IMG/VR virus record: IMGVR_UViG_3300020463_002275
Location: 117,935 to 181,934 of that record
Source: a virus
Length of the DNA: 64,000 nucleotides
Strand: one strand, 5' to 3'
Part shown: in pieces, positions 4,992 through 45,844 of the stretch
Position numbering within the stretch: the stretch's first letter is position 1
Layout: each line of letters starts with the position of its first letter
Notes under the pieces: model-generated
What the model was told of the DNA's origin: nothing
The model's input: the letters and a program-made list of their open reading frames with translations, nothing else
Database searches by the model: none
Position numbers and translations under genes: made by a program

Positions 4992-5017
4992 GTTACCACT
5001 TATATTATCTATATTCA

Positions 5018-5025
5018 TATAAATA
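5018..5025 (+). promoter_or_regulatory. T4 late promoter consensus TATAAATA
   Basis: Exact T4 gp55-type consensus in the intergenic region before 5132. Confidence 0.75.
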
Positions 5026-5030
5026 CAGTA

Positions 5031-5115
5031 TAACAAAGAATTAGACCTAAAATTCTTTTGTTATTAATACTGTGGTCAACCCGCAATGCAAGGTGGTTGG
5101 AGGGACAGGATCCCC
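5031..5115 (+). ncRNA. Candidate structured 5' leader RNA
   Basis: Hairpin TAACAAAGAATT/AATTCTTTTGTTA (5031-5063) followed by a GC-rich nested stem (CTGT/ACAG, CAACC/GGTTG; 5070-5108) just before SD AAGGAG. Confidence 0.4.
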
Positions 5116-5131
5116 GTGTTAAGGAGTAGAG

Positions 5132-24592: not shown

Positions 24593-25561
24593 ATGACTAG
24601 AAGTAAAGCATTTTTTCTAAACGGTGGCGCAGGACGTATGCTATGTTCAATACCTGCACTTGAATTATATGAACAAAAGTCAGGTGATAAAGATTTTGTA
24701 ATAGTATGTGAAGGCGGTACTGACATGTTTAAAGGTCATCCTAAATTACATAAACGTGCATACGATCCTTGGCACAAAAACTTATTTGAAGATATTATCA
24801 AGCATAGACAGGTAGTAAATCCAGAACCATATCAAGTATGGGAATATTACAATCAAAAATGTAATTTATCACAAGCATTTGATATATTACTAAATGATAA
24901 GGGTGTAAGAAAATTAGATAAACCTTATATTAATTTAAGCAAAGACGAAATGCTAGTTGGAAGAAAACTAGTAAACGAAGTTAAAGAAAAAATTAAAAAA
25001 GAAAAAGTAATTGTAGTTCAGCCGTTTGGACGAGGAATCGAAATAATGGACGATACTCCAATTGACACTACTGCACGTAGTTTTGAATTCAAAGATTTAA
25101 AATCATTACTTAAAAAATTAGAAAAAGATTATGCTATTGTAATGATGAGTGAAATGAAAATGGAACTAAAAGGCGAAGGTATTAAACAAGAAGTAGCAAT
25201 GCCTGAAGGACTGTCGTTACGCCAGTGGGCAGGAATGATAAAATTTTGCGATCATTTTTTAGGTTGTGACAGTGTAGGACAACATTTAGCATATGCAGTT
25301 GGTACTCCAACCACAGCAGTAATTGGTGCAACTTTTCCTAGCAACGTAAGTTATCCAGGTAAAGAAGGAATCAAAGTTATTGACTTAGGAATGAATGATA
25401 GATTATATGATCCTATTAGAATTACAGTAGATGAAACTGTTAACAGACATAACGAAAAACTTATGCAAATGGATGATGCTATTCAAGATTATGTAATTGG
25501 TGTAATTAAAGGCGAAATTGATCCAGACGCAGAGGAAAAAACTGCTGAAGCAAAAAAATGA
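24593..25561 (+). CDS. GT9-like glycosyltransferase (heptosyltransferase fold)
   Basis: GGAGRMLCSIPAL N-motif; VIVVQPFG; LRQWAGMIKFCDHFLGCDSVGQHLAYAVGTPTTAVIGAT matches the GT9 signature DSG-x-x-H-LA-x-A-x-G-x-P. Confidence 0.75.
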   Translation: MTRSKAFFLNGGAGRMLCSIPALELYEQKSGDKDFVIVCEGGTDMFKGHPKLHKRAYDPWHKNLFEDIIKHRQVVNPEPYQVWEYYNQKCNLSQAFDILLNDKGVRKLDKPYINLSKDEMLVGRKLVNEVKEKIKKEKVIVVQPFGRGIEIMDDTPIDTTARSFEFKDLKSLLKKLEKDYAIVMMSEMKMELKGEGIKQEVAMPEGLSLRQWAGMIKFCDHFLGCDSVGQHLAYAVGTPTTAVIGATFPSNVSYPGKEGIKVIDLGMNDRLYDPIRITVDETVNRHNEKLMQMDDAIQDYVIGVIKGEIDPDAEEKTAEAKK

Positions 25562-26418
25562 CCCGACTATACGTTTTAGGTTGTTCGTTTACTAATTATG
25601 CTTGGCCTACTTGGGCAGACATGCTAGGCTTAGAATTTGATGAATGGGAAAATTGGGCATTTCCGGGATTAGGAAACAGAGCAATAGCAGAACGTGTTGC
25701 CGAAATTCACGCAAAAAATAATTTAACAAAAGACGATACTGTTATAATACAGTGGACCAGTCATTTAAGACATGACTGGCATGCAACTGATACCAGACAT
25801 CAAGACAATGCAGGCTGGAAAACTTCAGGAAGTTTGTTTAACTATATCAATCAAGAAATATTTGATGAAAAATGGATTAAAACTTTTTGGTCTGAACCTA
25901 GTTATATGATGCATACATTTAACAATATACTATTAACACAAGAATTTTTAAACGGTATAGGATGTAATTGGCGAATGACAAGTATGGGATATATTAATAA
26001 AATGAATAGTGATTATCCTGATGGAGAACACGGAGAACAAACTTCGGATATTGATGTGTGGGACAGTCATCCTAATTTACAAGTGTATAAAAAAGTTTTT
26101 AAAGATAAATCAAAATGGATTAAACCAGTAGGAACATTTGCTTGGAATCATAAATCAAAGCCGTATAAATTTAAATCTATGCAAGATCAAGCAGTGTTTG
26201 CATTAGACAGGCATCCTACTATTACACAACATAAAGACTATTTAAACAAACATATTTTACCTAGTCTAGGTATAAGCCAAAAACAAACCGAAAAAGTAGA
26301 TTATTGGATAGATACTGTTAGTAATGCATATGAAACTAGTCATAGGGATTTTGATTTGTTTTGTGAAACACTTGATAAAGAAATAAGTGATCGTAATAAC
26401 CATTACAGAGGATTTTAA
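25558..26418 (+). CDS. SGNH/GDSL-fold protein (esterase or acyltransferase-like)
   Basis: Block I LGCSFT, block II PGLGN, VIIQWT, C-terminal D-x-H-P (LDRHP); ATGA overlap with the GT9 gene. Confidence 0.6.
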   Translation: MTRLYVLGCSFTNYAWPTWADMLGLEFDEWENWAFPGLGNRAIAERVAEIHAKNNLTKDDTVIIQWTSHLRHDWHATDTRHQDNAGWKTSGSLFNYINQEIFDEKWIKTFWSEPSYMMHTFNNILLTQEFLNGIGCNWRMTSMGYINKMNSDYPDGEHGEQTSDIDVWDSHPNLQVYKKVFKDKSKWIKPVGTFAWNHKSKPYKFKSMQDQAVFALDRHPTITQHKDYLNKHILPSLGISQKQTEKVDYWIDTVSNAYETSHRDFDLFCETLDKEISDRNNHYRGF

Positions 26419-26421
26419 ATT

Positions 26422-28224
26422 ATGAGTAAACCAGTTTGGATAGCAGGTATAGCAAGAGGACATAACGCAGGCGTATGTTTATTAAAAGACGGCGAAGTAA
26501 TATTTGCTGTTGAAGAAGAACGTTTAAGCAGACAAAAATACGACGGTGGACCATTTGCAAGTATAGTGAAAATACTTGAATATACAGATAAGTTAGATTA
26601 TCTTGTTGTTGCCCATACACAAAAATTACAAGAAACAGCAGGTAGAGTTGATTATAGTGGTGATGATGTTTACACAGGATTAGCACGTAAATTAGGTTTG
26701 ATTGATAAAAAGAAAAATGCAACAACATATGAGCATCCACAAGTAATTGACCTTGCATTTATGCATCACAAACTTCATAGTGCTTGTGCATTTTATCGTT
26801 CAGGATTTGATAGTGCAGTAAGTGTTATTGTAGACGGAGCAGGAACTTTTGTTCCTATTGGCGTTAATAATGAACAAGTAATGAGTTGGGAAGTAGAAAG
26901 TATTATTGATTGTGATTATCCGGCTACATTTAATACTATGCATAAAGTTTACGGTACAAGAGACCCTATACCAGGCGGCGTTGTTCAAATGGACAGTACA
27001 CAGTTTGGTGAGAACGGACGTACACACTCAGCAATAGTAAGTGATAGAGCAGGTATTGTTAAAGCATATGAAGCGGCAACTATGTACTGCGGATGGCAAA
27101 GTATTGAAGCAGGAAAAACTATGGGACTATTTCCATACGGAAAACCTAACGATAAATTTCCAAAACTTTTTGATGACACAACAGATTATCCATTAACAAA
27201 TAGAAATATTGTTGTTCCAAATTATCCTAATGGTGCAATGATTAATGCAGGGTTATATGGAGAACTTGCACAATCAGGAAAGTCACCAGAAGATGATTTA
27301 ACTCTATTGCAGAATAGAAGAGATATTGCATATGCTGTACAAACAGAAACACAAGAACAAGTAACTGCTTTAATTAGAAATGCTGTAGAACTATCAGGTA
27401 AAAAAAATGTAGTAATTAGTGGAGGTTATGGACTTAATTGTGTTGCTAACTATCACTACCTAGAACAATTAAAAGATGAAGGTATTAAAATTTATGTTGA
27501 ACCTGTAAGTAATGATGCCGGCACAGCAATGGGTGCCGCTATGATGTTTTGGTATGGATTAGAAGACGAAACTGAAACACGTCAAACACAAACATTATAT
27601 CTTGGACCGCACAACAATTATACAAAAGAAGATATTATAACAAAAGCAGAAGAAGCAGGTGTAGAATTAACAGATGCAACTCATAAAGATGTTGTAAAAT
27701 TAATTACTGATAGAAATATTGTAACAATTTTCCAAGGACAAAGTGAAAATGGTCCTAGAGCATTAGGTAATAGAAGTGTTTTATATGATCCAACAGATCC
27801 AGATGGTAAGGATCATGTTAACAAAGTTAAACATAGAGAATACTTCCGTCCATTTGCAGGTAGTATACTACAAGATGATGTACATGAATGGTTTGATTTA
27901 CGCGGCATGGAAGATAGTCCTAGCATGATGTATGCTGTTAACTGTCAACCAGGCGTGGAAGAAAAAATTCCTGCTATTATCCATGTTGATGGAACATGTA
28001 GAATTCAAACTGTAACACAAGAACAAAACAAACATTACTATGATTTGATTAAAGAATTCAAAAATCAAACAGGTTGCCCAATTATTTTCAATACTAGTTT
28101 TAATTTAGGAGGAGAACCACTAGTTGAAACAGTTGAAGATGCTATTTGGACCTTACAAAATAGTGATATTGAATACCTTTACCTACCAGAATTTAATAAA
28201 TTAATTACGGTTAAAAACACATAG
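26422..28224 (+). CDS. O-carbamoyltransferase (NodU/CmcH/TobZ family)
   Basis: GHNAGVCLLKDG...EEERLSR, HHKLHSACAF, EAGKTMGL, SGGYGLNCVAN, NDAGTAMG, GPRALGNRS, RPFA, NTSFN. Confidence 0.9.
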   Translation: MSKPVWIAGIARGHNAGVCLLKDGEVIFAVEEERLSRQKYDGGPFASIVKILEYTDKLDYLVVAHTQKLQETAGRVDYSGDDVYTGLARKLGLIDKKKNATTYEHPQVIDLAFMHHKLHSACAFYRSGFDSAVSVIVDGAGTFVPIGVNNEQVMSWEVESIIDCDYPATFNTMHKVYGTRDPIPGGVVQMDSTQFGENGRTHSAIVSDRAGIVKAYEAATMYCGWQSIEAGKTMGLFPYGKPNDKFPKLFDDTTDYPLTNRNIVVPNYPNGAMINAGLYGELAQSGKSPEDDLTLLQNRRDIAYAVQTETQEQVTALIRNAVELSGKKNVVISGGYGLNCVANYHYLEQLKDEGIKIYVEPVSNDAGTAMGAAMMFWYGLEDETETRQTQTLYLGPHNNYTKEDIITKAEEAGVELTDATHKDVVKLITDRNIVTIFQGQSENGPRALGNRSVLYDPTDPDGKDHVNKVKHREYFRPFAGSILQDDVHEWFDLRGMEDSPSMMYAVNCQPGVEEKIPAIIHVDGTCRIQTVTQEQNKHYYDLIKEFKNQTGCPIIFNTSFNLGGEPLVETVEDAIWTLQNSDIEYLYLPEFNKLITVKNT

Positions 28225-29635: not shown

Positions 29636-32600
29636 ATGGCAAAGAAAAAGATTAATAATTATAAGTTTAAACCAGGAATAGGTTATGTAGAGAACCTATA
29701 TCCAAACGCTTATGCACTTTTAAATTCAAACAAAACATTTTTACAAGCAGAAACAGGACAGTTTATAACTTCTAGAGTAAGTGATGCTACAGCATTTCAA
29801 GCAGACCTTGTTTCAATGATTGACGACCTAGAACAAGAAATGGTTTTAGGAACTACTGCTACACAAAGACTTTGGGGATATATTGAAAGTCAAAAAAGTA
29901 TTAACCAAAAAACAACACGTAAAAGAACTATACAAAGATTAAAAACAGGGTTAACTGCATTAAGTAATGTTACAGGTACTTACCAAACAGCAATAGAAAC
30001 TGCTATAGACGAAATAGTAGATATTGCAGTTAATGGATTTGCAAGTGCGGCAGTAGATTTAACAACTTCAGAGCGTACAGGCGAAACAGAAGTTAATATT
30101 GGCTATGCTGTTGCTAGAATGAAAAGTAACAGAGCATTTATGATTTCTGAAACAAAAGCATTTATGGATGCAGATACTCCTGGTAATACTGTAACTACAG
30201 CGGCAACTTTTGAAACTGAATTAGGTATTTTAATTGATTGTATTTGTCAAGACGTATCAACAACAGCAAATAATTTAACTAAAACAATTAATGAAGAAAT
30301 TTATGTAAACACCACACCAGGAAATAGATCACTTTTAAGTGACGGTATGACTAGACTAGCAACTGTTATGAAACAAATTGCTGAAGGTGCTACAGTTGCA
30401 CGTACAACAGGAAATTCTTTAACACAAGACACAAGCGGAACTAGTGCAAACACAGTATTAGGTGATAGATGTAGACAACATATATTAGATACACAATCAG
30501 TAGTTGCTAACGGTACAACATCAAGTTTACCTACACCAGTATATCCAAATTATAGTGATGAACCAGCACAAGGACAATCAGCCGCTACAGATTTAGAAAA
30601 TAATAAAACTACTGTTGCTACAAATATTAATGCTTTTTATAACTATACATTTAATCAAGCAAAATGTGAAAGAGATACAGGATTAATTATTAAATCGTAT
30701 TTGTTTGATTTAAGATACGGTGGTAATCAAAAAACATATGAATATGCAAGTAAGTATTGGGAACAAGATGTAGCACAAATTGACGGCACACGCTATCCTG
30801 AAACAGATACACATACTTGGCTAACAGAACTTATTAGAGATTATGTTTTTAATAAAACAACATATCCAAATGAACAAACAGCAACAACACAAACAATTAC
30901 AGGAACAGACGCAGAAGCAGGCGCAGATACACCAATTACAGATTTAGGTTCTTTAGTAGTAACTACTATTGAAGGTGGATTAAGTGCAAGACCAGCATTT
31001 GTTGACACTGGAGCAGGTTATATTAAATTTCCTGGAAATTATGATTCTAGCGATATATTATTAATTACAAACACTACAGACAACGAAGTTATATACTCGT
31101 TCAATGATGTAAATAGTGGAGGTGTTACAGAACTTGCTACATCATTTGTTAGTACGAATGATTATGCATACACAGAAGATGAAGACTTCCCTGCATATCT
31201 GCAAACAACAGATGCAATTACAAAAGTTTATTTAAACAAGAATACTGCAAGTATGCTTGCAGAAGACAAGTTACAAATTTATGTTGATACAGATGAATTA
31301 ATTATTAGACCATTTGAATTTGGTACAGATGCTATTGAAAGAAATAGAACTGCTGAACCACAGTCAATGCTAGACGCTGACTTTGAGTACGGACTACAGC
31401 CTACTAAATGGAGTGCTATTGCAACGATGCGAGGTTATCCATCAGTTTACGAAGTTCCAGGAACTGAAACAAGTGTTATATCAATCATTTCAGACAGTAG
31501 TGCAGGCACAGCAGGAGTTGGTAGTTCATTAATTACAGTAACAACAGCAGGTGCTCACGGATTTGAACTTGGTGATGCAATTACAATAAAAGGTTTAAAA
31601 CAAGACGTACAAGGTTACAGTAGAGCAGAAGGTGCATTTATAATAATTTCAGTACCTAATGCAATTAGTTTTCAATATTATGCAAAAGCAAAAGTTGGTA
31701 CAAGTGGAAATGTAAACATTGAAGCAGAAGCAACACAACTTAGACAAGCAGGATTTTATACAGGTGCTAGTATTGGTGTTCCGGCATTTAGCGTTGAAAG
31801 TAATGGTAGTTCAGGTACAATAAGACCAGCACTGACTGTTGGATCAGGCGAAGACGTAATACCATTTACTGTTACAGTAGGCTTAGCACCAGAGATTGGT
31901 GCTCCTTTAACAGCATCATCAGGAATTGCTTTAGGTACACAGGTCACAGGTAGAGTTGGTACAGGAGGAGTTGCAGTAACTCCAGTTGTAACAGCAGACT
32001 ATGGTCCGGGATCAACACAAGTTGATGTTCAATCTACTTCAGGCATTCAACAAAATATGGCGGCTAACAAAGGTGACGGAACAGCAACACTAGTCAATAC
32101 TGTTGTAGGAAACACAATTACATTAAGCGATGCTACAACAAATGATATTAAAGGTAACTATGTTAATTACACAGCAGTTGAAGGACAAAATATTGTTAGT
32201 TTAGGGTTTGGTGCTACGTTTGATGTTAGTAGAGCAGGCGGTAACTACACAATTGATGCTATTGTTAATTCAGGTCAAGACTATTCGCCCAATGATGTGT
32301 TAATAATTCAAGGTGAATTTTTAGGTGGTGTTACACCAACAAACGATTTAACGATTACAGTATCTAGTGTAGATACAGGTGGAGAAATTTTAACTACTTC
32401 TGTAAGTGGTACAGCATTTAATGGTACAGGAAACTTTGGTAATGTTACTGGTACATATTTAAATGGTAACGGTACAGGCGGTCTTTGGAACATAGGATAT
32501 ACAAACGGAGTGTTTAACAATGTTACACTAAGTAATCCAAGTTTCCCTTCACAAAACGGAACAGTTAGTGGCGGTGCTGGTACTGGTGTATTACTTGATT

Positions 32601-35600
32601 TTGTTGTTACAAACAATACATATGCAGTAACAGTAGATCCAGCAACAGCAGGTGTTACAGGTTATAGTGTGTATGATATTATTCAAGTTTCAGGTAATAA
32701 CTTAGGTGGTACTTCACCTAACAATGATGCACAAGTTACTGTAACAAATGTTGATAGTACTGGATATCCAACCGGAGTAAGTGTAACAGGTAACGGTGGC
32801 AATGCGACAAACAATTTTACTAATGTAACTTATAGCACAAATAATTCAGGTATTGGTGCAAATTTAAATATCCAAACTAATGGTACAACTTATACTCCAG
32901 TGTTTACTGTTACTGGTACAGGATTTGCACAGAATGATACAGTCACAGTATTAGGTACACAAGTTGGCGGATTAAGTCCTGCAAACGATATTACAATTAC
33001 AATAGATACAGTTGATACTGGTGGAGAAATTTTAACATTTACTACAACAGGTACAGCAGTTAATAGTCATTCATATAGTGGTATTGGTAATGGAATAAAC
33101 TTAGTTGGTAGTGGAGCGGACTTTAATGTTACAATTAACGGACTAAATGAAACTTACGGAGTTACAGTTGGCAATGCAGGTAATAATTATGCACCTAATC
33201 AAACAATTACAATTCCAGGCACACAATTAGGTGGTGCTACTCCAGACAATGATTTAACAATTACAGTAACAGATGTTGATAACGATTCAACTCTCACAGT
33301 AGGTGGTATATTAACCGTTAATGCTACAGGTACAGCAGTTAAATCAACTTCAGGTTATGCAATTGGTGACAGATTAAAAATAAACGGTAGTTCCTTTACA
33401 GGAGGAGCAGATACAACTAACGATGCAATTATTGAAGTTACATCAGTAGACGGTACAGGCGGTATTACTAACTATACAACAACTGGTACAGCACCAGACG
33501 GAGTACAAACTTATACAGCAGTAACAGGCACAGCAAGTTTAAGCGGTACAAATGCTTCATTTGATGTAACACGTACTGGGTCAACATATACAGCAGTTTT
33601 AAACTTAGCAGGTGCTAACTTTGTTCAAAACGAAACTATTGTAATCTTAGGTACAGATTTAGGCGGTGCTACAACAGCAAACGATTGTACAATTACAGTT
33701 GATAGTGTCGACGGTAGCGGAGCAATCCAAACACTTACGCCAACAGGTACTGCGGCAAATGTAGGATTGCTGTCTGAACAATCAGCAGGTAGTATTGTAG
33801 GTAATGGTGCAACGTTTAATGTTGCGTTAGCCGCAGGAAGTTATACAACTACACTTGCACAAGCAGGTCAAGAATATTATCCTGGACAAAAATTCCTAGT
33901 AACTGGTAATCTATTAGCAGGTGCTACACCAACAAATGACTTAACAATTACTATTTCAACTGTAAATGCAACTGGAGGTATATTAACAGTTTCAGACTCA
34001 GGTTCAGCAAGTACAGATGTTGCTAGTTTTGCAAACGTTTCTGCAAACGTAGCAAGTTCAACAGGTAACGGATTTAGTTTAGATATTTTAAGAGATGGTA
34101 CTACTGCTGATAGTAGTGTAGGAACATATACATTTAGTTTAAATCAAGGTGGAAGTAATTATCAAATAAGTGATAAGATAAAAATTGGTGGAGAAAATTT
34201 AGGAGGCCAAGGCAGTATACATGATGTACAAATTGTTGTAGATAGTATAGATAGTGCAGGAGCAGTGCTAACATTTACAGCAACAGGAGATGCTTTTGCA
34301 GGTACTTCGTTTGACTTATACAGTACAGTTACAGTTGATACTCCAACTACCGGCCAACTAGCAACTTCATTAGACATATCATTTAGTGCATTGGCTACAT
34401 TACGAATTAACTTTGATTCAGCACATGGTTTAGTACCAGGTGATACATTTATTACTACGGTTGATTCAGACGATGGCAGTAACAATCATGATTTAGCGGC
34501 AGGTTCGTTTATTGCAACAGCAATACCAAGTGCAACATCACTTACATTTACTGCTAGAGCGGCAGGAACTATTGATGCTACAAGCGATAATATTAACGGT
34601 ACGGTTTATCCAAGACCAGATTCATTCTTTATTCACAGACCATTTGACGGTGGTGTGCAATTAGGTACTGGCGGTCCACAACATGGCGCACAAGCAATAC
34701 GTCAAAGTAAAAAATATATTAGATACCAATCAGGTAAAGGCATCATGTACACAACAGGTGCGTTGTTTGCTCCAAGTTATGACTTGAGAAGTATAACAGC
34801 AAGTGGTGTAGAAATTGGTGCAACAATTACTGTAACTTGTGATGATAATGATCATGGTTTACAGATTGGTTCAAGCATAAAATTAATTGGCATTGAAACT
34901 GTAGGATATAACGGAACATATACAGTTAATGATGTAATTGATGAGCGTACATTTGAAGTAATTAACACCCTCAACAGACTAGGTAACACTACTGCGGTTT
35001 TAAGTTTTGGTGCTCAAATGTCAACATATCAGTGGCACGGTGCAACTGTACGTTCGGGTGTGTTTGATGATCAAAACGGCATTTATTGGGAATATGATGG
35101 CACAAACTTATTATGCTGTCAGCGTACTTCAACTAAACAAATTTCAGGCACAGGGGCAATAACACCAGATACAAACACCGTTACTGGAACAAACACAAGA
35201 TTTAGAGATCAATTAAAAGCAGGTGATAGAATTGTTATACGTGGTATGACCCATGTTGTAAGTGCAGTTACTACACAAACACAAATGACAGTAACACCAG
35301 ACTATAGAGGTGTAAACACAGCAGTAGGTACTAAAATATGTTTAGTTGCTGATAAAAAAGTTAGACAAAAAGACTGGAACCTAGATAGAATGGACGGCAC
35401 TGGTCCAAGTGGTTATAATTTTGATCCTGCTAAAATGCAGATGATAGGAATTGAATATTCATGGTATGGTGCTGGTTTTATTGATTATATGGTGCGTGGT
35501 GCAGACGGTAACTTTGTATATGGACATAGAATTAGAAATTCAAATGTCAATACTGAAGCATATATGCGTTCAGGTAACTTGCCTGTGCGTTATGAAATTA

Positions 35601-37063
35601 CCAACGAAGGTCAAAATGGTAAATTAAAAACAGATATTGATGCAACACAAACAACCATACCGTTAGAAACAGTTGACTTCTTTCCAACTTCAGGTACAGT
35701 TTATATTGACAACGAACTTATAAGTTTTACAGGTACAGACACAGCAACTAATAGCATTACAGGTTGTACAAGACAGGCAACACTTACAAACTTCCAAGCA
35801 GGTGCGGCACGTAGTTACACAGCAGGAAATCCGGCGTCACATGATGCTAGAACAGGTGTAATTTTAATTAGTAATACAACAACACCACTAATATCACATT
35901 GGGGATCGGCGTTTATTACAGATGGCGGCTTTGATGAAGATCGTGGTTACATTTTCTCTTACACAGAACAAGCACTAACAGTTACAAATGTTAGACAAAC
36001 AGCATTTATGATAAGACTAGCACCTAGTGTATCAAACGCTATTATTGGTGACTTAGGAGATAGAGAATTACTTAACAGAGCACAATTACTACTAAGTTCT
36101 CTAGAAGTTACATCAGAAGCAAACTCAACAGGTTCTATTGTTATTGAAGGTATCCTAAATCCGCAAAACTATCCTACTAACCCAGCGTTGATTAGTTGGA
36201 CAGGATTAAGTGGACTTGCACAAGGTGGACAACCAAGTTTTGCACAGATTGCATCAGGTGGTGGTATTACATGGTCAACTGGTGCTACTACAACTACATC
36301 AAATATTACTGCACAAGCAGGAGTAAATGCTGTACTAGATTCAGGAATATATAGATCAAGAAACGGAAGTAGATATATCTATGTAAATGGTTCAGACTAT
36401 AGAGCAACATTTGGAACAGATAGTACAGATCCAGTATTAGGTAAAACAATTACAGGTAACAACATAAGATCCAATACAAGAGTTGACGGTGGTTATATTT
36501 CTGCAAGTGGAACTTATGGTTACTTATTCTTATCCCAGACACTTAGTGGAAACATTACTCAGAATACATCAAATGCAATGACAATTACATCACATGGGAC
36601 AGTAGAAAATGCTAACTTTGCATACATTCAAAAAGCAAGTTGGGAAGCAAGTGGTGGTAGAGATGGTACAGCAGTAAGCCCAACAAGTTCATCACCAACT
36701 TGGCCTGCTAACACAGTTATTAACAAAATTGAATTGGTAGACTTTGCTGGTACTGAATATTATTTGATTGAATTTAACAACGCCGCTAGTGGAGATTTAG
36801 TAGCAGGTAGTGGTACTATTACACTTGAATTTAGTTCACCACCCTACGGACAACCAGGTGAAACAGTTCTATCATTTATTGCACAGCCAGGTTCTCGTGC
36901 TGACTTAGATCTAAGTCAATTGAAAGAACTTACAAATACTACATTAGGTGGTAGAGGTACTTTTCCAAACGGTCCAGACGTATTAGCGATTAACGTGTTT
37001 AAAACAACAGGCACTGATGTTGAAGCCAACATTATTCTACGTTGGTCAGAGGCTCAAGCGTAA
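29636..37063 (+). CDS. Giant 2475-aa virion fibre/appendage protein
   Basis: N-terminal helical repeats (one with QAKCERDTG); about 8 copies of G-x-Y-x3-D-x-I-x-I-x-G-x2-LGG-x-TP-x-ND-x-TITV; Thr/Gly-rich. Confidence 0.7.
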   Translation: MAKKKINNYKFKPGIGYVENLYPNAYALLNSNKTFLQAETGQFITSRVSDATAFQADLVSMIDDLEQEMVLGTTATQRLWGYIESQKSINQKTTRKRTIQRLKTGLTALSNVTGTYQTAIETAIDEIVDIAVNGFASAAVDLTTSERTGETEVNIGYAVARMKSNRAFMISETKAFMDADTPGNTVTTAATFETELGILIDCICQDVSTTANNLTKTINEEIYVNTTPGNRSLLSDGMTRLATVMKQIAEGATVARTTGNSLTQDTSGTSANTVLGDRCRQHILDTQSVVANGTTSSLPTPVYPNYSDEPAQGQSAATDLENNKTTVATNINAFYNYTFNQAKCERDTGLIIKSYLFDLRYGGNQKTYEYASKYWEQDVAQIDGTRYPETDTHTWLTELIRDYVFNKTTYPNEQTATTQTITGTDAEAGADTPITDLGSLVVTTIEGGLSARPAFVDTGAGYIKFPGNYDSSDILLITNTTDNEVIYSFNDVNSGGVTELATSFVSTNDYAYTEDEDFPAYLQTTDAITKVYLNKNTASMLAEDKLQIYVDTDELIIRPFEFGTDAIERNRTAEPQSMLDADFEYGLQPTKWSAIATMRGYPSVYEVPGTETSVISIISDSSAGTAGVGSSLITVTTAGAHGFELGDAITIKGLKQDVQGYSRAEGAFIIISVPNAISFQYYAKAKVGTSGNVNIEAEATQLRQAGFYTGASIGVPAFSVESNGSSGTIRPALTVGSGEDVIPFTVTVGLAPEIGAPLTASSGIALGTQVTGRVGTGGVAVTPVVTADYGPGSTQVDVQSTSGIQQNMAANKGDGTATLVNTVVGNTITLSDATTNDIKGNYVNYTAVEGQNIVSLGFGATFDVSRAGGNYTIDAIVNSGQDYSPNDVLIIQGEFLGGVTPTNDLTITVSSVDTGGEILTTSVSGTAFNGTGNFGNVTGTYLNGNGTGGLWNIGYTNGVFNNVTLSNPSFPSQNGTVSGGAGTGVLLDFVVTNNTYAVTVDPATAGVTGYSVYDIIQVSGNNLGGTSPNNDAQVTVTNVDSTGYPTGVSVTGNGGNATNNFTNVTYSTNNSGIGANLNIQTNGTTYTPVFTVTGTGFAQNDTVTVLGTQVGGLSPANDITITIDTVDTGGEILTFTTTGTAVNSHSYSGIGNGINLVGSGADFNVTINGLNETYGVTVGNAGNNYAPNQTITIPGTQLGGATPDNDLTITVTDVDNDSTLTVGGILTVNATGTAVKSTSGYAIGDRLKINGSSFTGGADTTNDAIIEVTSVDGTGGITNYTTTGTAPDGVQTYTAVTGTASLSGTNASFDVTRTGSTYTAVLNLAGANFVQNETIVILGTDLGGATTANDCTITVDSVDGSGAIQTLTPTGTAANVGLLSEQSAGSIVGNGATFNVALAAGSYTTTLAQAGQEYYPGQKFLVTGNLLAGATPTNDLTITISTVNATGGILTVSDSGSASTDVASFANVSANVASSTGNGFSLDILRDGTTADSSVGTYTFSLNQGGSNYQISDKIKIGGENLGGQGSIHDVQIVVDSIDSAGAVLTFTATGDAFAGTSFDLYSTVTVDTPTTGQLATSLDISFSALATLRINFDSAHGLVPGDTFITTVDSDDGSNNHDLAAGSFIATAIPSATSLTFTARAAGTIDATSDNINGTVYPRPDSFFIHRPFDGGVQLGTGGPQHGAQAIRQSKKYIRYQSGKGIMYTTGALFAPSYDLRSITASGVEIGATITVTCDDNDHGLQIGSSIKLIGIETVGYNGTYTVNDVIDERTFEVINTLNRLGNTTAVLSFGAQMSTYQWHGATVRSGVFDDQNGIYWEYDGTNLLCCQRTSTKQISGTGAITPDTNTVTGTNTRFRDQLKAGDRIVIRGMTHVVSAVTTQTQMTVTPDYRGVNTAVGTKICLVADKKVRQKDWNLDRMDGTGPSGYNFDPAKMQMIGIEYSWYGAGFIDYMVRGADGNFVYGHRIRNSNVNTEAYMRSGNLPVRYEITNEGQNGKLKTDIDATQTTIPLETVDFFPTSGTVYIDNELISFTGTDTATNSITGCTRQATLTNFQAGAARSYTAGNPASHDARTGVILISNTTTPLISHWGSAFITDGGFDEDRGYIFSYTEQALTVTNVRQTAFMIRLAPSVSNAIIGDLGDRELLNRAQLLLSSLEVTSEANSTGSIVIEGILNPQNYPTNPALISWTGLSGLAQGGQPSFAQIASGGGITWSTGATTTTSNITAQAGVNAVLDSGIYRSRNGSRYIYVNGSDYRATFGTDSTDPVLGKTITGNNIRSNTRVDGGYISASGTYGYLFLSQTLSGNITQNTSNAMTITSHGTVENANFAYIQKASWEASGGRDGTAVSPTSSSPTWPANTVINKIELVDFAGTEYYLIEFNNAASGDLVAGSGTITLEFSSPPYGQPGETVLSFIAQPGSRADLDLSQLKELTNTTLGGRGTFPNGPDVLAINVFKTTGTDVEANIILRWSEAQA
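32180..34290 (+). repeat. Protein-level tandem repeats (~80-95 aa) in the giant fibre
   Basis: Recurring LGG(A/V/T)(T/S)P(T/D/N)NDLTITV...G.IL units; boundaries approximate. Confidence 0.7.
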
Positions 37064-37581
37064 ATATTAAAATTTACTATACAACGAGGATTATCAGTTG
37101 GAAATCCACCTGAGTGTAAAGTTTCTCCGTCAAATAAAACTATACGTCCTTTTTTAGGAGTAACTTTTTCTATTACTTTTTCTTTTTCAAAGAATACAGT
37201 ATCACCGTCACTATCATTTACATAATAAATTAAACCTAAATGTTTTTCAGGTCGATCTGTATGAGGAGCATAAAAGTCAAGTTTAGTTTTATGCGGCACT
37301 GTAATAAAAAGTCTTGCGGCAATGATATCAATAAAATCAATGTTTAATTCTGCAAAAACAGTTTGCGGTATTTTTGAAAAATTGCCATAGTGTTCAGTAA
37401 GTTTTGTACTACTCTTTAATACATGTTCAAAACTTACAGGTATGTTACCACCATCAAATGCAGTTGGCTCATATTTACAAACTAAAGGTAGTGTTGCATT
37501 AATTTTTGTACTACCAAAAACAAGTGTGTGATAGTAATCCTGTAATTCTTGTGGTATAAGATTATCTTTAACTATTATCAT
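37054..37581 (-). CDS. 2OG-Fe(II) oxygenase (prolyl-4-hydroxylase-like)
   Basis: PHTD (HxD), LIYYVNDSDGDT, PKKGRIVLFDG..LH, RCIVNFN. Confidence 0.8.
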   Translation of the reverse strand: MIIVKDNLIPQELQDYYHTLVFGSTKINATLPLVCKYEPTAFDGGNIPVSFEHVLKSSTKLTEHYGNFSKIPQTVFAELNIDFIDIIAARLFITVPHKTKLDFYAPHTDRPEKHLGLIYYVNDSDGDTVFFEKEKVIEKVTPKKGRIVLFDGETLHSGGFPTDNPRCIVNFNIYA

Positions 37582-38203
37582 CTAGCATATCAACAAACGA
37601 AGAAAGGTTATCAAATACTCTTGTTGCTTTCCTAATATTTCTGTATGTAAATCTTTTGTTAATTAATTCTTCTGTTTCTTTCCCGTATCCTGTGCGAACT
37701 AATACAGGTCTTGCTCCCATCTTAAGAGCGGCTTTTAGATCTGATATTTTATCTCCAACAAAATATCCTTTATTAAATTTAACATGTTTTACTTCTTGTT
37801 CGCAACGCTTAAACATTCCTGTGTTAGGTTTTGCAAACATATCTTTTTTTGAACTACTTGCACTATAGTATAATCCGTCTATACTAGGACATCCTGCTAA
37901 TCCTAATTGTTGAAACATATGTTCGTGTACTTTTTCAACATCTTCTTGTTTGTAAATGCCCTTTTCAATACCGCCTTGGTTGGTAATAATAACAATTTTG
38001 TGACCTAGTTTACGTAGTTTTACTATTGCCTCTAAACTACCTTCTTCAAATTCCCAATCATCTACTTTATAAACATAATCGCCAATGTCTTTATTAATTA
38101 CACCGTCTCTGTCTAAACCAACTACACACTTAGGTGCAACATAATCTGGTCTATAGACGTCGATGTTAACATCATCACTCCATACTATCTTCGGGTCGCT
38201 CAT
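37568..38203 (-). CDS. gmhB: D-glycero-D-manno-heptose 1,7-bisphosphate phosphatase (HAD)
   Basis: LDRDGVIN, ITNQGGI, KPNTGMF, FVGDKISDLKAA, VLVRTGYG; sits in an operon with hldE/hldD. Confidence 0.85.
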   Translation of the reverse strand: MSDPKIVWSDDVNIDVYRPDYVAPKCVVGLDRDGVINKDIGDYVYKVDDWEFEEGSLEAIVKLRKLGHKIVIITNQGGIEKGIYKQEDVEKVHEHMFQQLGLAGCPSIDGLYYSASSSKKDMFAKPNTGMFKRCEQEVKHVKFNKGYFVGDKISDLKAALKMGARPVLVRTGYGKETEELINKRFTYRNIRKATRVFDNLSSFVDMLDDNS

Positions 38204-38600
38204 CTGCTACTTTTCCTTTTAACTCTTCTAACAAACCTTCTTGGCTATCACCTGGAATAAGCCTATAATTATCTTCTACACTATCAGCAGTACTTACTTC
38301 TGTGATGCTACTGTTATCTTCTAATGCTTCTAACTGATGCGGCAATAATGGTTTATTACGCCACGTCATTCCTTGTGTTAATGTTTGACTGAATAATGTT
38401 GCAGTCTTTGTATCAATCCATCGTACAATAAAACTACCTTCATTTACAAACCAACTTTCATCTTTTTCTTTATGAAAATGCATACTAAATTTATTTCCTT
38501 TTTTAGTAAACACCATCATTTTGCCACAATATAAATCATTGGTAGCCCAAATTATTTCATAGCCCCAACCTTTATCTACTTTACCTTCTAATCTTGCCAT
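38175..38600 (-). CDS. Cupin-fold putative sugar(-phosphate) isomerase
   Basis: KGWGYE, SMHFHKEKDESW..NEG, PHQL, EVST cupin motifs; start placed at MARLEG (ORF track start is 38612). Confidence 0.7.
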   Translation of the reverse strand: MARLEGKVDKGWGYEIIWATNDLYCGKMMVFTKKGNKFSMHFHKEKDESWFVNEGSFIVRWIDTKTATLFSQTLTQGMTWRNKPLLPHQLEALEDNSSITEVSTADSVEDNYRLIPGDSQEGLLEELKGKVADERPEDSME

Positions 38601-39529
38601 GTTTCTATCCATTCCTCCGGTTTGGTAAATTTAAACTCACCTATTGTTTTAATTAACTTTGTATTATCACTACAAGTATACTTTTGATATTGACTAACCA
38701 AATTATCAGGCATTGGTATAGGTTCTACTTTTGCATTATATTTGTTTGCAATACTATGTGCAATAGTTGTAAAACTTGTTGTTTCGCCTGTACCTACATT
38801 CCATATACCCATTTCATCAATGTTCATCATTTTTTCAATAATTTTACATACATCTCCTACGTATATAAAATCTCTTAAAAATTCACTACTGCCTACAAAT
38901 GGATGTACTTTGCCTGTTTCTTTTGCTTGGGCTTTAAACTTATGGAATACACTCATTTGATCACCTTTGTGTTCTTCGTGTTCTCCATATACATTAAAAA
39001 AGCGTAACCCTTTAATATTACATTTATAATCTTCCCATTTAATCATTTCTACACCACGATCAAATAAATATTTTGACCATGAATAAGGACTTTGTGGTTG
39101 CTTAGGTGCATCTTCTTGAAAATTTGTACCATCACCATATATACTAGCACTTGATGCATATATTAAATCAACTCCTTGCATGTCGCAAACTTGCATTAAT
39201 CTATGACTGAAATCTAAGTTTTGTTTTAAAACTTTTTCAACATCACGTTCTGTTGTGCTTGATATTGCACCCATATGTAAAACTTTATCAAATTGACTGC
39301 AATCAGGAACTACATTTTCAATAAATTCATACTCTGCTATACCGTGGCCTTTGCTCATGAGATACTTTTTTAAATTTTTTCCGATAAATCCATCGGCTCC
39401 TGTAATTAATATTTTTAATTTATTCTTATTCATGCTTCTTTCTTTGTTATTCCTACGTGATGCTTCTAAACTCATTTTTAATTCTTGTTCTTCCTTTGGC
39501 CACTCTTCATGAAAATATTTTTTATTCAT
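38588..39529 (-). CDS. hldD: ADP-L-glycero-D-manno-heptose 6-epimerase
   Basis: ITGADGFIG, HMGAISST, YASSASIYG, PYSWSK, LRFFNVYG..EEHKG, RDFIYVGD; alternative start at 39433. Confidence 0.85.
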   Translation of the reverse strand: MNKKYFHEEWPKEEQELKMSLEASRRNNKERSMNKNKLKILITGADGFIGKNLKKYLMSKGHGIAEYEFIENVVPDCSQFDKVLHMGAISSTTERDVEKVLKQNLDFSHRLMQVCDMQGVDLIYASSASIYGDGTNFQEDAPKQPQSPYSWSKYLFDRGVEMIKWEDYKCNIKGLRFFNVYGEHEEHKGDQMSVFHKFKAQAKETGKVHPFVGSSEFLRDFIYVGDVCKIIEKMMNIDEMGIWNVGTGETTSFTTIAHSIANKYNAKVEPIPMPDNLVSQYQKYTCSDNTKLIKTIGEFKFTKPEEWIETWQD

Positions 39530-40664
39530 TTATTTTCTCTAATATATTTGTTGTTGAAAAATCTTCAACTGTAGGCACAATATAAACGCTAGTTAAATCA
39601 TGTCCTACTACTTCATTAACTTTGTAATCACCACCTTTAACGATTAGGTTAGGCTTTATTGACTTGATTAAATCATATGGTGTATCTTCACTGAATACAA
39701 TAACTTCATCTACCCAAGGTAATATTTCTAATTGTTTCTTACGTGTTTCTACAGGATTAATTGGACGATTATCTCCTTTTAATCTCCTTACACTACGATC
39801 ATCATTTAATCCTACAATAAGTTTGTCGCCTTTTTCTTTGGCGGCTTTTAATAATTCAAAATGACCAGTATGCAATATATCAAAACATCCATTTGTAAAA
39901 ACAACAGTGCTTTCTAAATCTTCTTTTTTTAATTTATATGTGCCACTATGTTTAACACTTTCAGTTGAACCTCTTATAGCAATTTCTAAGCATTTTTTAT
40001 AATCATAACCTTTTACCAAACCAAAAACAAGTCCTGCTAAGAAACAATCTCCTGCTCCTGTTACATCTGATACTTCTACATTTTCTACAGGTATATTATA
40101 ATCTACACCGTCAATATTAGCAATTACTTCTTTACCTGCATTAGTTGTTATAATATTTCCTTGCCACTTGTCAAATCCAAATTTGTAAAATTCGTTATAG
40201 TTTGGTTTTACTAGCCATGCACCTTCGTATTCACTTGCATTACGCTTAGGATCAACAATTATTTTACAGCCAAATTTATTAATATGATTTATTATTTTTT
40301 GTGTATGATCTAATGCACCTTTATTGTAATCACTTAGTATCACATAATCATATGGTGCAAAATCACTTTGCAGTATTTGTTCTAAAACAGCATCTGCATC
40401 AGCATGTTCATCTTCGTCTAATCTAGTTATATAATGTCCATCTGATATTATTCTTGTTTTAGTACTTCTATTTTGATTATTATGTACAAGTGTTGCATCT
40501 ATATCTAAATTTTTTAAATTTTCTAATACAAGTCCTGCACCGCCTAGCGAAGTTGATACTTTATCAATATTAACTATAGGCACTGGTGCCTCTGGACTAA
40601 TTCTTGAACTAGTGCCATACACATATTTGTCTACAATAACATCGCCGAATACTAAGACTTTCAT
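39522..40664 (-). CDS. hldE: Bifunctional heptose-7-phosphate kinase / heptose-1-phosphate nucleotidyltransferase
   Basis: GDVIVDKY..G...RISPEAPVP, LSDYNKG, DVTGAGD (PfkB kinase) fused to FTNGCFDILHTGH, GLNDD, KGGDY, STT. Confidence 0.92.
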   Translation of the reverse strand: MKVLVFGDVIVDKYVYGTSSRISPEAPVPIVNIDKVSTSLGGAGLVLENLKNLDIDATLVHNNQNRSTKTRIISDGHYITRLDEDEHADADAVLEQILQSDFAPYDYVILSDYNKGALDHTQKIINHINKFGCKIIVDPKRNASEYEGAWLVKPNYNEFYKFGFDKWQGNIITTNAGKEVIANIDGVDYNIPVENVEVSDVTGAGDCFLAGLVFGLVKGYDYKKCLEIAIRGSTESVKHSGTYKLKKEDLESTVVFTNGCFDILHTGHFELLKAAKEKGDKLIVGLNDDRSVRRLKGDNRPINPVETRKKQLEILPWVDEVIVFSEDTPYDLIKSIKPNLIVKGGDYKVNEVVGHDLTSVYIVPTVEDFSTTNILEKINE

Positions 40665-40669
40665 ACTAT

Positions 40670-40698
40670 ATAATAACTTACTTACTAAGGTTTGTCAA
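40670..40698 (-). promoter_or_regulatory. Sigma70-type promoter for the heptose operon
   Basis: Minus strand TTGACA-N17-TATTAT-N5-ATG(40664). Confidence 0.7.
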
Positions 40699-41125
40699 GT
40701 AAATTCAAAACTTTTGTTACAGTTTCTAATTTACTTTGATTAATTTTACTTTGCAATGTATTACGCAATCCGTGATGTAAAGGTTTAGGCCAACTTCCGC
40801 TCTTAACCCAAGCGTATCCATCATGTTCTCCGTTTAGAATAGGAATAAATTCTTCTTTCACTGCACACAAATAAGTATGAAATTGAAATTGATGGTCAGT
40901 TGATATAAAAGTTTCAAGAGGAATAGTCTTTTCAATCTTTGGATTAAATCCTACTTCTTCTTTTATCTCACGCTTTAGTACTTCCCAAGGTGTTTCTTTG
41001 CCTTCACCTGTACCTCCAACTAAACCCCATAAGTTCTTAGTTTTACCTTTAGTACGATGTAATAGTAAAAAGCGTTGTGTTTTTAGACTGTAGAACAGAG
41101 TTCCACTACAAATTATCTTGTTCAT
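40685..41125 (-). CDS. Nudix hydrolase
   Basis: Canonical Nudix box G-TGEGK-E-TPWEVLK-REIKEEVG. Confidence 0.9.
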   Translation of the reverse strand: MNKIICSGTLFYSLKTQRFLLLHRTKGKTKNLWGLVGGTGEGKETPWEVLKREIKEEVGFNPKIEKTIPLETFISTDHQFQFHTYLCAVKEEFIPILNGEHDGYAWVKSGSWPKPLHHGLRNTLQSKINQSKLETVTKVLNLLDKP

Positions 41126-44585: not shown

Positions 44586-45230
44586 ATGCATTATGAAGTC
44601 ACACCCCTATTCTCTACACCTTTATTGAAAACACATATCGGCCCATTAGATCCAATTACACTTGCTTGGTTAAAGCGTTTAGAATGTCCTGATAGTTCTG
44701 TAGCACAATATGGCAATGAAGACCACTTACCAGCGTCAGAGCGAGGATTTGATGTGTTAAACCAGCCAAAATTAAGCAACTTACAAACACTTATAAAAAA
44801 AGCAGTAGATCATTTTACGTACAATGTATTAGATGTAACTGATGATACTGAATTTGTTTTAACTACTAGTTGGATTAACAAAATGAATACAGGTAGCGAT
44901 ATAGGATTGCATAATCATGCAAATTCTTTGATAAGTGGAGTATATTATCCTGAAGTAGGAGAGCAATCTAATCCTATTACGTTTAGAAAAAATAGGCAAC
45001 ATTTAAATTCATTTCCAGAACATCTACGCCCTAATACTAAAGAAAATTGGAGCCAATATACTGTAGGAGCATGGACAGTAAAACCCATGACAGGAGACTG
45101 TTTAATTTTTCCTAGCCACTTAGAGCATGAGGTTGCACTCAGTAATGATAAACACAATAGATATAGTTTGGCTTTTAATTATTTTCCTAAAGGCAAACTA
45201 GGAAAAAACTCAGTTAGGGTAAACATATGA
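44586..45230 (+). CDS. 2OG-Fe(II) oxygenase, TIGR02466-like
   Basis: PLFSTP, SWIN, HNHANSLISGVYY, GDCLIFPSHLEHEV, RYSLAFN. Confidence 0.8.
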   Translation: MHYEVTPLFSTPLLKTHIGPLDPITLAWLKRLECPDSSVAQYGNEDHLPASERGFDVLNQPKLSNLQTLIKKAVDHFTYNVLDVTDDTEFVLTTSWINKMNTGSDIGLHNHANSLISGVYYPEVGEQSNPITFRKNRQHLNSFPEHLRPNTKENWSQYTVGAWTVKPMTGDCLIFPSHLEHEVALSNDKHNRYSLAFNYFPKGKLGKNSVRVNI

Positions 45231-45844
45231 AATATCAAACCACACCTTTATTTTCAATTCCTTTATTTTATGCAAATATAGGAACAGTAGATCCTGCAAC
45301 AATGGCATGGATTGAAAATTTAGATTATCCTGATGAGGCGGCCGGGCATGATCATACATCAGACAAGTATGTATTAAACAATCCAAAATTAACATCACTA
45401 AAAGAGGACATACAAAATGCTTGTGATATTTTTGTAAAAGACGAACTTAAGGTAAATGACGATGTACATTTTGAAATGCAAAACAGTTGGATTAATAAAC
45501 ATTCAGCAAATGAACAAAACACATTACACTGGCATAGTAATGCTATGATTAGTGGAGTATACTATATTCAAAATGAACCTAATGCAGGAGATATTGTTTT
45601 CCAAAAATCACACTTATATTACAATTTATTTCATGATACTGTTAGAGTGTCTTTTAAAGAACCTACTCAATATAACACAAATGAATTTTACATATCACCC
45701 AAGTCAGGAGACTTAGTTATGTTTCCTAGTCATTTGGAACACATGGTTACCCCAAATCAAACAACAACTCCACGATACAGTTTGGCATTTAATTTCTTTG
45801 CTAGGGGGACTGTAGGCGGAGGTACATCGGAACTTAAATTATGA
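45227..45844 (+). CDS. 2OG-Fe(II) oxygenase, TIGR02466-like, tandem paralog
   Basis: PLFSIP, SWIN, HWHSNAMISGVYY, GDLVMFPSHLEHMV, RYSLAFN. Confidence 0.8.
   Translation: MKYQTTPLFSIPLFYANIGTVDPATMAWIENLDYPDEAAGHDHTSDKYVLNNPKLTSLKEDIQNACDIFVKDELKVNDDVHFEMQNSWINKHSANEQNTLHWHSNAMISGVYYIQNEPNAGDIVFQKSHLYYNLFHDTVRVSFKEPTQYNTNEFYISPKSGDLVMFPSHLEHMVTPNQTTTPRYSLAFNFFARGTVGGGTSELKL

Follow-up and report, generated by a model that had tools for sequence, protein, structure and literature searches.

The isomerisation of sedoheptulose-7-phosphate (S7P), the first step towards ADP-heptose, is performed by GmhA, an enzyme of the SIS fold that is to our knowledge the only family of S7P isomerases; our literature searches turned up no other. 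S7P is one carbon longer than its homologue fructose-6-phosphate and has an identical configuration at C3-C5; at C2, the product of GmhA is of manno configuration, which is also what phosphomannose isomerases (PMIs) yield. GmhA has been pursued as an antibiotic target. Here, we followed up a sequence-only reading of the final 64 kb (64,000 nucleotides, positions 117,935 to 181,934; hereafter the window) of the 181,934-bp IMG/VR virus record IMGVR_UViG_3300020463_002275, in which a small cupin gene (38175-38612, minus strand) lies between hldD and gmhB of an ADP-heptose gene cluster. That reading had taken the cupin for a replacement of GmhA. Based on homology and gene content, we consider it moderately probable that the cupin is a non-orthologous, metal-dependent S7P isomerase from the type II PMI cupin lineage, which is the best-supported of the readings weighed below. 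The proposal is favoured by the isomerase homology of the family and by its nearly exclusive distribution with respect to GmhA; it is weakened by two loci that carry both enzymes, by gaps in GmhB among the relatives and by the incomplete genome, and the function itself is a prediction. Our literature searches retrieved no prior description of a cupin S7P isomerase or of a cyanophage heptose cupin.

Among described enzymes, the type II PMI cupin (PF01050; the C-terminal domain of AlgA and ManC/CpsB) has its fold in common with the phage cupin and catalyses the class of reaction that we propose for it, with the manno configuration at C2. Both families align along a signature of PWG..., S-x-(Q/H)-x-H-x2-(R/K)-x-E-x-W, a later His and E-V, and both occur adjacent or fused to a nucleotidyltransferase (NTase). 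The phage cupin differs in being a stand-alone protein of ~140 amino acids with H-x-H instead of Q-x-H, in its partner NTase, which is of the HldE/cytidylyltransferase type and not an NTP_transferase, and in its linkage to heptose rather than mannose genes; its proposed substrate is one carbon longer, and the window's own protein (P0001) stays below the Pfam threshold. With GmhA, the cupin would share the reaction, the place in the pathway, a divalent metal and enediol chemistry, whereas the folds are unrelated and the sequences show no similarity, i.e. the cupin would be a functional analogue only, provided that it does catalyse this reaction. Zinc binding by GmhA is described in PMC11056994. 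The D-lyxose/D-mannose isomerases (PF07385; PDB 2y0o, 3kmh and 7nzo; structural Z 13.0-13.5) are likewise metal cupin aldose-ketose isomerases of lyxo/manno specificity, but they are longer (~170-230 amino acids), act on unphosphorylated sugars and have no link to a nucleotide-sugar pathway. Finally, the cupin PMI of Thermococcus kodakarensis (PDB 7zvy/7zvm; Z 13.8) is a single domain of ~110 amino acids that acts on a sugar phosphate, but its sequence similarity to the phage cupin is marginal (E 0.16-0.32).

Homology and predicted metal site of the phage cupin

We regard the cupin gene as real because it has 3241 homologues at E<=1e-3 in 90% clusters, mostly from marine metagenomes, and because the AlphaFold2 (AF2) model of its product is a confident beta-barrel with a mean pLDDT of 92.7. 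Counted from the first ATG the protein has 145 amino acids; the ATG at 38600, giving 141 amino acids, is the more likely start, because the relatives and the Atlas record begin there and a GGAGG lies 13 nt upstream. This agrees with the span of 38175-38600 given to the gene in the sequence-only reading. Motifs in the sequence predict a metal site formed by H45, H47, E52 and H92, and among 75 aligned family members these positions are conserved in 62, 73, 60 and 65, respectively, which bears out the intact HxH...E...H site noticed earlier. The two cupin motifs, G-x5-H-x-H-x3,4-E-x6-G and a second one with a His, the conserved ligands and the modelled barrel together place the protein in the metal-binding cupin superfamily. 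Indeed, the Cupin_1 and Cupin_2 models were matched by 47 and 57 of the 75 members, with P0001 matching Cupin_1 weakly.

At 50% identity the family falls into 2166 representative clusters, viral sequences make up 86-100% of the nearest ESM Atlas clusters, and the phage cupins form a single clade in a tree rooted on actinobacterial cupins. The clade to which the cupin belongs is large and almost purely viral. Among cellular proteins, the closest relatives, at ~41-44% identity, are stand-alone cupins encoded in metagenome-assembled genomes (MAGs) of Thermoleophilia and other Actinomycetota. One of them, examined individually, passes the PF01050 threshold, aligns to the phage cupin family in hhalign at 99.8% and directly follows a short NTP_transferase gene and a UDP-glucose/GDP-mannose dehydrogenase-type gene; the three genes resemble an AlgA-type PMI-GMP that has been split, beside an AlgD-type dehydrogenase.

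The function-specific Pfam models matched by the 75 members are led by D-lyxose isomerase (PF07385, best E 1.3e-7) and type II PMI (PF01050, at E<=0.01), with 31 members each, and those of RmlC, FdtA and cysteine dioxygenase were matched by none. Two proteins, P0143 (31 bits) and an open reading frame (ORF) of locus L017 (29.8 bits), exceed the PF01050 cut-off of 23.6 bits. Using hhalign, the family profile aligned to residues 368-462 of E. coli CpsB, its PMI-type C-terminal domain, at 82% probability and E 1e-5, with the WG, (Q/H)xH, E, W and distal H in register, and the D-lyxose isomerase 2y0o was matched by the profile at E 6e-5, with the alignment confined to the C-terminal third. The homology therefore leads to two kinds of aldose-ketose isomerase with manno/lyxo specificity, type II PMI and D-lyxose isomerase. 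When the PDB was searched with single sequences or profiles, the matches were mostly to oxalate decarboxylase and quercetinase, a generic metal-cupin similarity, and Foldseek and VIA-align placed many cupin classes at Z 12-16, such that fold matches are unable to decide the function.

The heptose gene cluster and the distribution of GmhA

The window belongs to a T4-like myovirus, as judged from its gp15 and gp13 families, with a G+C content of ~34% and a CheckV completeness of ~51% for the whole record. The heptose cluster comprises the following genes:

40685-41125, minus strand: NUDIX hydrolase, upstream of HldE and syntenic in 75 of 80 relatives
39522-40664, minus strand: HldE, 380 amino acids, with PfkB and CTP_transf_like domains (NF008454, 296 bits; TIGR02198 and TIGR02199)
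38588-39529, minus strand: HldD-like ADP-glyceromanno-heptose 6-epimerase of the SDR family (TIGR02197, 235 bits)
38175-38612, minus strand: the cupin P0001
37568-38203, minus strand: GmhB-type HAD-IIIA heptose-1,7-bisphosphate 7-phosphatase (NF006506, 137 bits; DRDGV and TNQ motifs)
37054-37581, minus strand: 2OG-Fe(II) oxygenase, a variable member and the last gene of the overlapping run

ORFs and family matches confirmed the order hldE-hldD-cupin-gmhB with overlapping frames that the sequence-only reading had described, with some reservation as to start codons. With first-ATG starts the overlaps along the run are 8, 25, 29 and 14 nt; the second shrinks to 13 nt if the cupin begins at ATG 38600. 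The HldD start may be M33 (window 39433), since relatives begin ~33 codons later, and the HldE/HldD overlap therefore depends on the start chosen. HldE matches both the rfaE domain I (kinase) and domain II (adenylyltransferase) models, as expected for a bifunctional heptose-7-phosphate kinase/heptose-1-phosphate adenylyltransferase; the N-terminus of its kinase is shorter than in bacterial models. Kinase, adenylyltransferase, phosphatase and epimerase are thus present, and no SIS or SIS_2 domain (PF13580 or TIGR00441) was matched in the window, as claimed before, or anywhere else in the 181,934-bp record, which leaves the isomerase as the gap in the pathway. The record was also negative for psbA and transaldolase.

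Is the cupin a regular substitute for GmhA in phage heptose clusters? We analysed 240 cupin-anchored IMG/VR loci, 80 from each of three cupin lineages, found with single proteins, and detected a SIS domain within 10 kb of the cupin at one of them. Around the window-type cupin, HldD was present at all 80 loci, HldE at 79, NUDIX at 75, a HAD phosphatase at 38 and SIS at none; SIS_2 was also absent from 30 window-type records searched over their whole length, all of them fragments. The cupin cluster also occurs on two phage-like contigs of the window's lineage (335 kb and 357 kb), neither of which has a SIS match. They are L010 (PBPT01000016.1, assigned to a Neomarinimicrobiota MAG), on which the heptose cluster is accompanied by gp15, and L012 (JBMHDW010000001.1, Comchoanobacterales MAG), and they look like near-full-length, mis-binned genomes of a ~350-kb phage lineage. 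Similar small contigs (L013-L015) occur in Polynucleobacter, Chitinophagales and Caulobacter MAGs. A second, distant cupin with 33% identity to P0001 (G031:C57:310921-311199 and G031:C77:13538-13819) lies ~39 kb from the first one on the 335-kb phage-like contig.

The cyanophage-type cupin is accompanied by HldD at 77, a kinase at 68 and a HAD phosphatase at 65 of its 80 loci, again with no SIS. The third lineage (L203-L282) is organised differently: at 64 of 80 loci the genes flanking the cupin encode a UvdE endonuclease and a peptide deformylase, and sugar genes are absent from the vicinity. Its genomes measure 170-290 kb and encode thymidylate synthase and Hsp20 near the cupin (e.g. L218:9060-10001 and L268:1914-2489). 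SIS_2 was found in none of the 16 long records of this lineage that were searched whole, including seven that are at least 96% complete. Six of these seven carry a split HldE, i.e. a kinase gene adjoining an NTase gene, tens of kb from the cupin, and in the seventh a GHMP kinase and an NTase adjoin the cupin. The split HldE, with a kinase of ~250 and an NTase of ~135 amino acids, is also the form seen in cyanophages.

In GenBank phages, the cupin was found in 35 records and a GmhA match in 13, with an overlap of zero. Every cyanophage with HldE among the matches listed is in the cupin list as well; LR756511 and LR756501/3 have an HldE-like gene with neither cupin nor GmhA among the BLAST matches listed. 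Approached from the other side, with SIS as the anchor of 80 viral loci, 36 include a nearby heptose-type kinase, and the cupin is missing from 34 of these 36. Caulobacter phage Cr30, for instance, carries a true GmhA beside an HddA-type kinase and no cupin. The mutual exclusion of cupin and gmhA suggested for phage heptose clusters in the sequence-only reading was hence largely confirmed, and fails at two IMG/VR loci, L142 and L196, where both occur together; such co-occurrence is rare and not routine.

The gene order around the cupin varies with the lineage and the partners stay constant. On the freshwater contigs L013-L015 and L269-L280, for example, the cupin lies among kinase, NTase and HAD genes in differing orders. 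In natural fusion proteins, the cupin is combined with an HldE-type NTase (P0204) or with HAD/NT5C-type phosphatases (P0143 and P0185). Synteny alone is no sufficient explanation for a linkage that, in three phage lineages, persists through reorderings and fusions. In a further fusion, P0131, the partner is an Asp/Asn beta-hydroxylase-like domain.

Proposed reaction and competing explanations

Gene content, linkage, class of homology and lack of SIS are what the sequences show. In the scheme that we infer for substrate, catalytic residues and acceptor, a divalent metal held by H45, H47, E52 and H92 would polarise the C1 and C2 oxygens of S7P, a cis-enediol would form, and the phosphate would be bound by the conserved K31, K50 and R117. 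The cupin would in this way perform the step that is normally done by SIS-fold GmhA. HldE would phosphorylate C1, GmhB or a host phosphatase would then take off the 7-phosphate, HldE would adenylylate the sugar and HldD would finally epimerise C6, and the resulting ADP-heptose would probably be used by a cassette of a GT9-like transferase and a carbamoyltransferase. For this, a PMI-type metal cupin would need little beyond space for a phosphate one carbon further out.

Several observations weigh against this assignment. P0001 itself matches no isomerase Pfam model at E<=0.01, including PF07385, and only other family members do. The top structural match is the cupin domain of CapF, an epimerase (Z 15.7, rmsd 1.7 Å over 110 residues). 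With ~51% of the genome at hand, a gmhA may be located in the missing half. On L142 and L196, the cupin shares a stretch of 6 kb with a GHMP kinase, an NTase and a strong SIS GmhA; both contigs are nested inside the third lineage in the tree, where the close relative L206, a complete genome, has no SIS, so that the co-occurrence looks rare and derived, yet it is real. Furthermore, GmhB is absent beside 42 of 80 close relatives. Missing steps are thus tolerated in about half of them, and a host GmhA could serve in the same manner.

These last points would fit a cupin that isomerises a different sugar phosphate, for example an ordinary PMI converting fructose-6-phosphate to mannose-6-phosphate for a second sugar, while the host GmhA supplies the first step of the heptose route. 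The closest cellular relatives do resemble PMI domains, and the large lineage with the cupin between UvdE and peptide deformylase keeps it away from sugar genes. However, the mannose setting typical of PF01050 is lacking: the cluster contains no NTP_transferase or phosphomannomutase, its neighbours being HldE, HldD and GmhB, and no phosphomannomutase or GDP-mannose genes accompany the cupin. What it is linked or fused to are the HldE-type NTase, the heptose kinase, the HAD phosphatase and HldD, and HldD works on C6 of the heptose, which in mannose is no stereocentre. Even the unlinked lineage still encodes a split HldE elsewhere in the genome. We consider this explanation unlikely, though it survives better than those that follow.

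A second alternative relates the cupin to nucleotide-sugar epimerases of the CapF/WbuC kind. The C-terminal cupin of S. aureus CapF, a UDP-4-hexulose 3-epimerase domain, is fused behind an SDR, and the phage cupin is likewise a metal cupin next to an SDR, in the same SDR-then-cupin order. It could accordingly act with the HldD-type SDR on a keto intermediate and yield an unusual ADP-heptose isomer, with heptose-7-phosphate coming from the host GmhA. Besides the structural match, which Foldseek also returned, HldD is the most constant neighbour of the cupin (80 of 80 and 77 of 80 loci in the two linked lineages), and there is a faint resemblance to WbuC (TIGR04366). The TIGR04366 score of 20.3 bits is, however, far under the 42-bit cut-off, CapF and the phage cupin share 14% identity, and the sequence profile gives E 0.056 for CapF as compared to 6e-5 for D-lyxose isomerase; the lack of any match to RmlC- or FdtA-type models among the 75 members points in the same direction. 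Moreover, some arrangements lack the presumed partner: the 96% complete genome G042 has the cupin and a split HldE and no SDR epimerase of any kind, and L269, L271, L278 and L280 show an NTase-cupin-kinase order with no HldD nearby. We therefore judge an epimerase function improbable, more so than an isomerase for another substrate.

A role as a metal-dependent oxygenase, or as a protein without catalytic activity, unrelated to sugars and retained in the cluster by synteny alone, appears highly improbable for the cupin, given that its linkage to heptose genes survives order changes and fusions and that no member matches the cysteine dioxygenase model, despite the "cysteine dioxygenase" label of PHROG 7851 and RefSeq, the similar fold scores of quercetinases, oxalate decarboxylase and dioxygenases, and the adjoining 2OG oxygenases.

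Returning to the S7P isomerase, we put forward a broader picture, tentatively and as a possibility that we would not call probable. The virus-specific, PMI-derived clade would constitute a second, non-homologous family of S7P isomerases, and hundreds of T4-like phages from marine and fresh waters, among them the model cyanophages P-SSM2, S-SM2 and S-CAM1, would thereby have a self-contained ADP-heptose pathway, whose product would be transferred by the GT9-like enzyme and carbamoylated on virion fibres or on the cell surface, in hosts whose lipopolysaccharide (LPS) is free of heptose. According to a review (PMC4515613), the LPS of marine Synechococcus (WH8102 and CC9311) indeed lacks heptose; it is therefore less obvious that cyanophage hosts would supply the pathway. 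If true, an unrelated second enzyme for the S7P step would clearly exemplify non-orthologous displacement, with a PMI-type cupin recruited to heptose synthesis, and abundant ocean phages, cyanophage models among them, would carry the complete route from a pentose-phosphate intermediate to ADP-heptose.

Cyanophage annotations and the probable use of the product

In the cyanophages P-SSM2, S-CAM3 and Sf-CH8, a cupin homologue with 35-42% identity, gp312 in P-SSM2, adjoins a gene annotated as "phosphoheptose isomerase":

L002:5652-5996 (P-SSM2 gene 311): HAD phosphatase
L003:5676-5996: HAD phosphatase
L001:5658-6008: HAD phosphatase

These proteins of 106-116 amino acids matched only HAD models (TIGR01689, the BT0820 family and HAD-IIIA), carry a DxDGT motif and gave no SIS match. 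Judged by their domains, they are analogues of GmhB. We accordingly rejected the apparent routine co-occurrence of cupin and gmhA in cyanophages, as the gene so named is a HAD phosphatase without SIS. The complete P-SSM2, S-CAM3 and Sf-CH8 genomes contain no SIS_2 match either, and the cyanophage clusters are thus built like that of the window, with kinase, NTase, phosphatase, epimerase and cupin and no SIS.

The same wrong "phosphoheptose isomerase" label is borne by PHROG 1238, and the "cysteine dioxygenase" name given to the cupin's own family, PHROG 7851, appears to be a fold-level transfer. This matters for surveys of viral genes that rely on labels, in which "gmhA" would denote a HAD phosphatase and the likely isomerase would be listed as "cysteine dioxygenase" or "nucleotidyltransferase". 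In at least one marine virome study (PMC9238414), "phosphoheptose isomerase [gmhA]" is counted among well-characterised auxiliary genes.

Genes that may use the sugar lie 10 kb upstream of the heptose genes in the window, with a fibre-like ORF in between:

24593-25561, plus strand: GT9-like (heptosyltransferase-like) protein, a weak match (PF01075, 21.4 bits; TIGR02201, E 1e-5)
26422-28224, plus strand: NodU-type O-carbamoyltransferase of the same cassette
29636-37063, convergent with the heptose operon: fibre-like ORF of 2475 amino acids to which no family could be assigned, with a protein of ~2000 amino acids at the same place in L004 and L005

In P-SSM2, S-CAM3 and contig L013, orthologues of the GT9-like and carbamoyltransferase genes are direct neighbours of the heptose genes, which indicates that sugar-making and sugar-using genes are one conserved module, split in the window around the fibre-like gene. 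The GT9-like protein likely consumes ADP-heptose, and the 2475-amino-acid protein is a candidate glycosylation acceptor. The interval 24593-28224 also includes an unassigned ORF of 286 amino acids.

The surroundings of the cluster are variable. Paralogues of the 2OG-Fe(II) oxygenase are encoded in the window at 37054-37581, 44586-45230 and 45227-45844, and in the relative L004 such a gene (L004:7336-8013) is inserted between HldD and the cupin. The relatives L005-L008 carry two genes of the tryptophan-halogenase family between NUDIX and HldE (~2942-5928) and lack GmhB, and a tryptophan halogenase also adjoins the heptose genes of S-SSM7.

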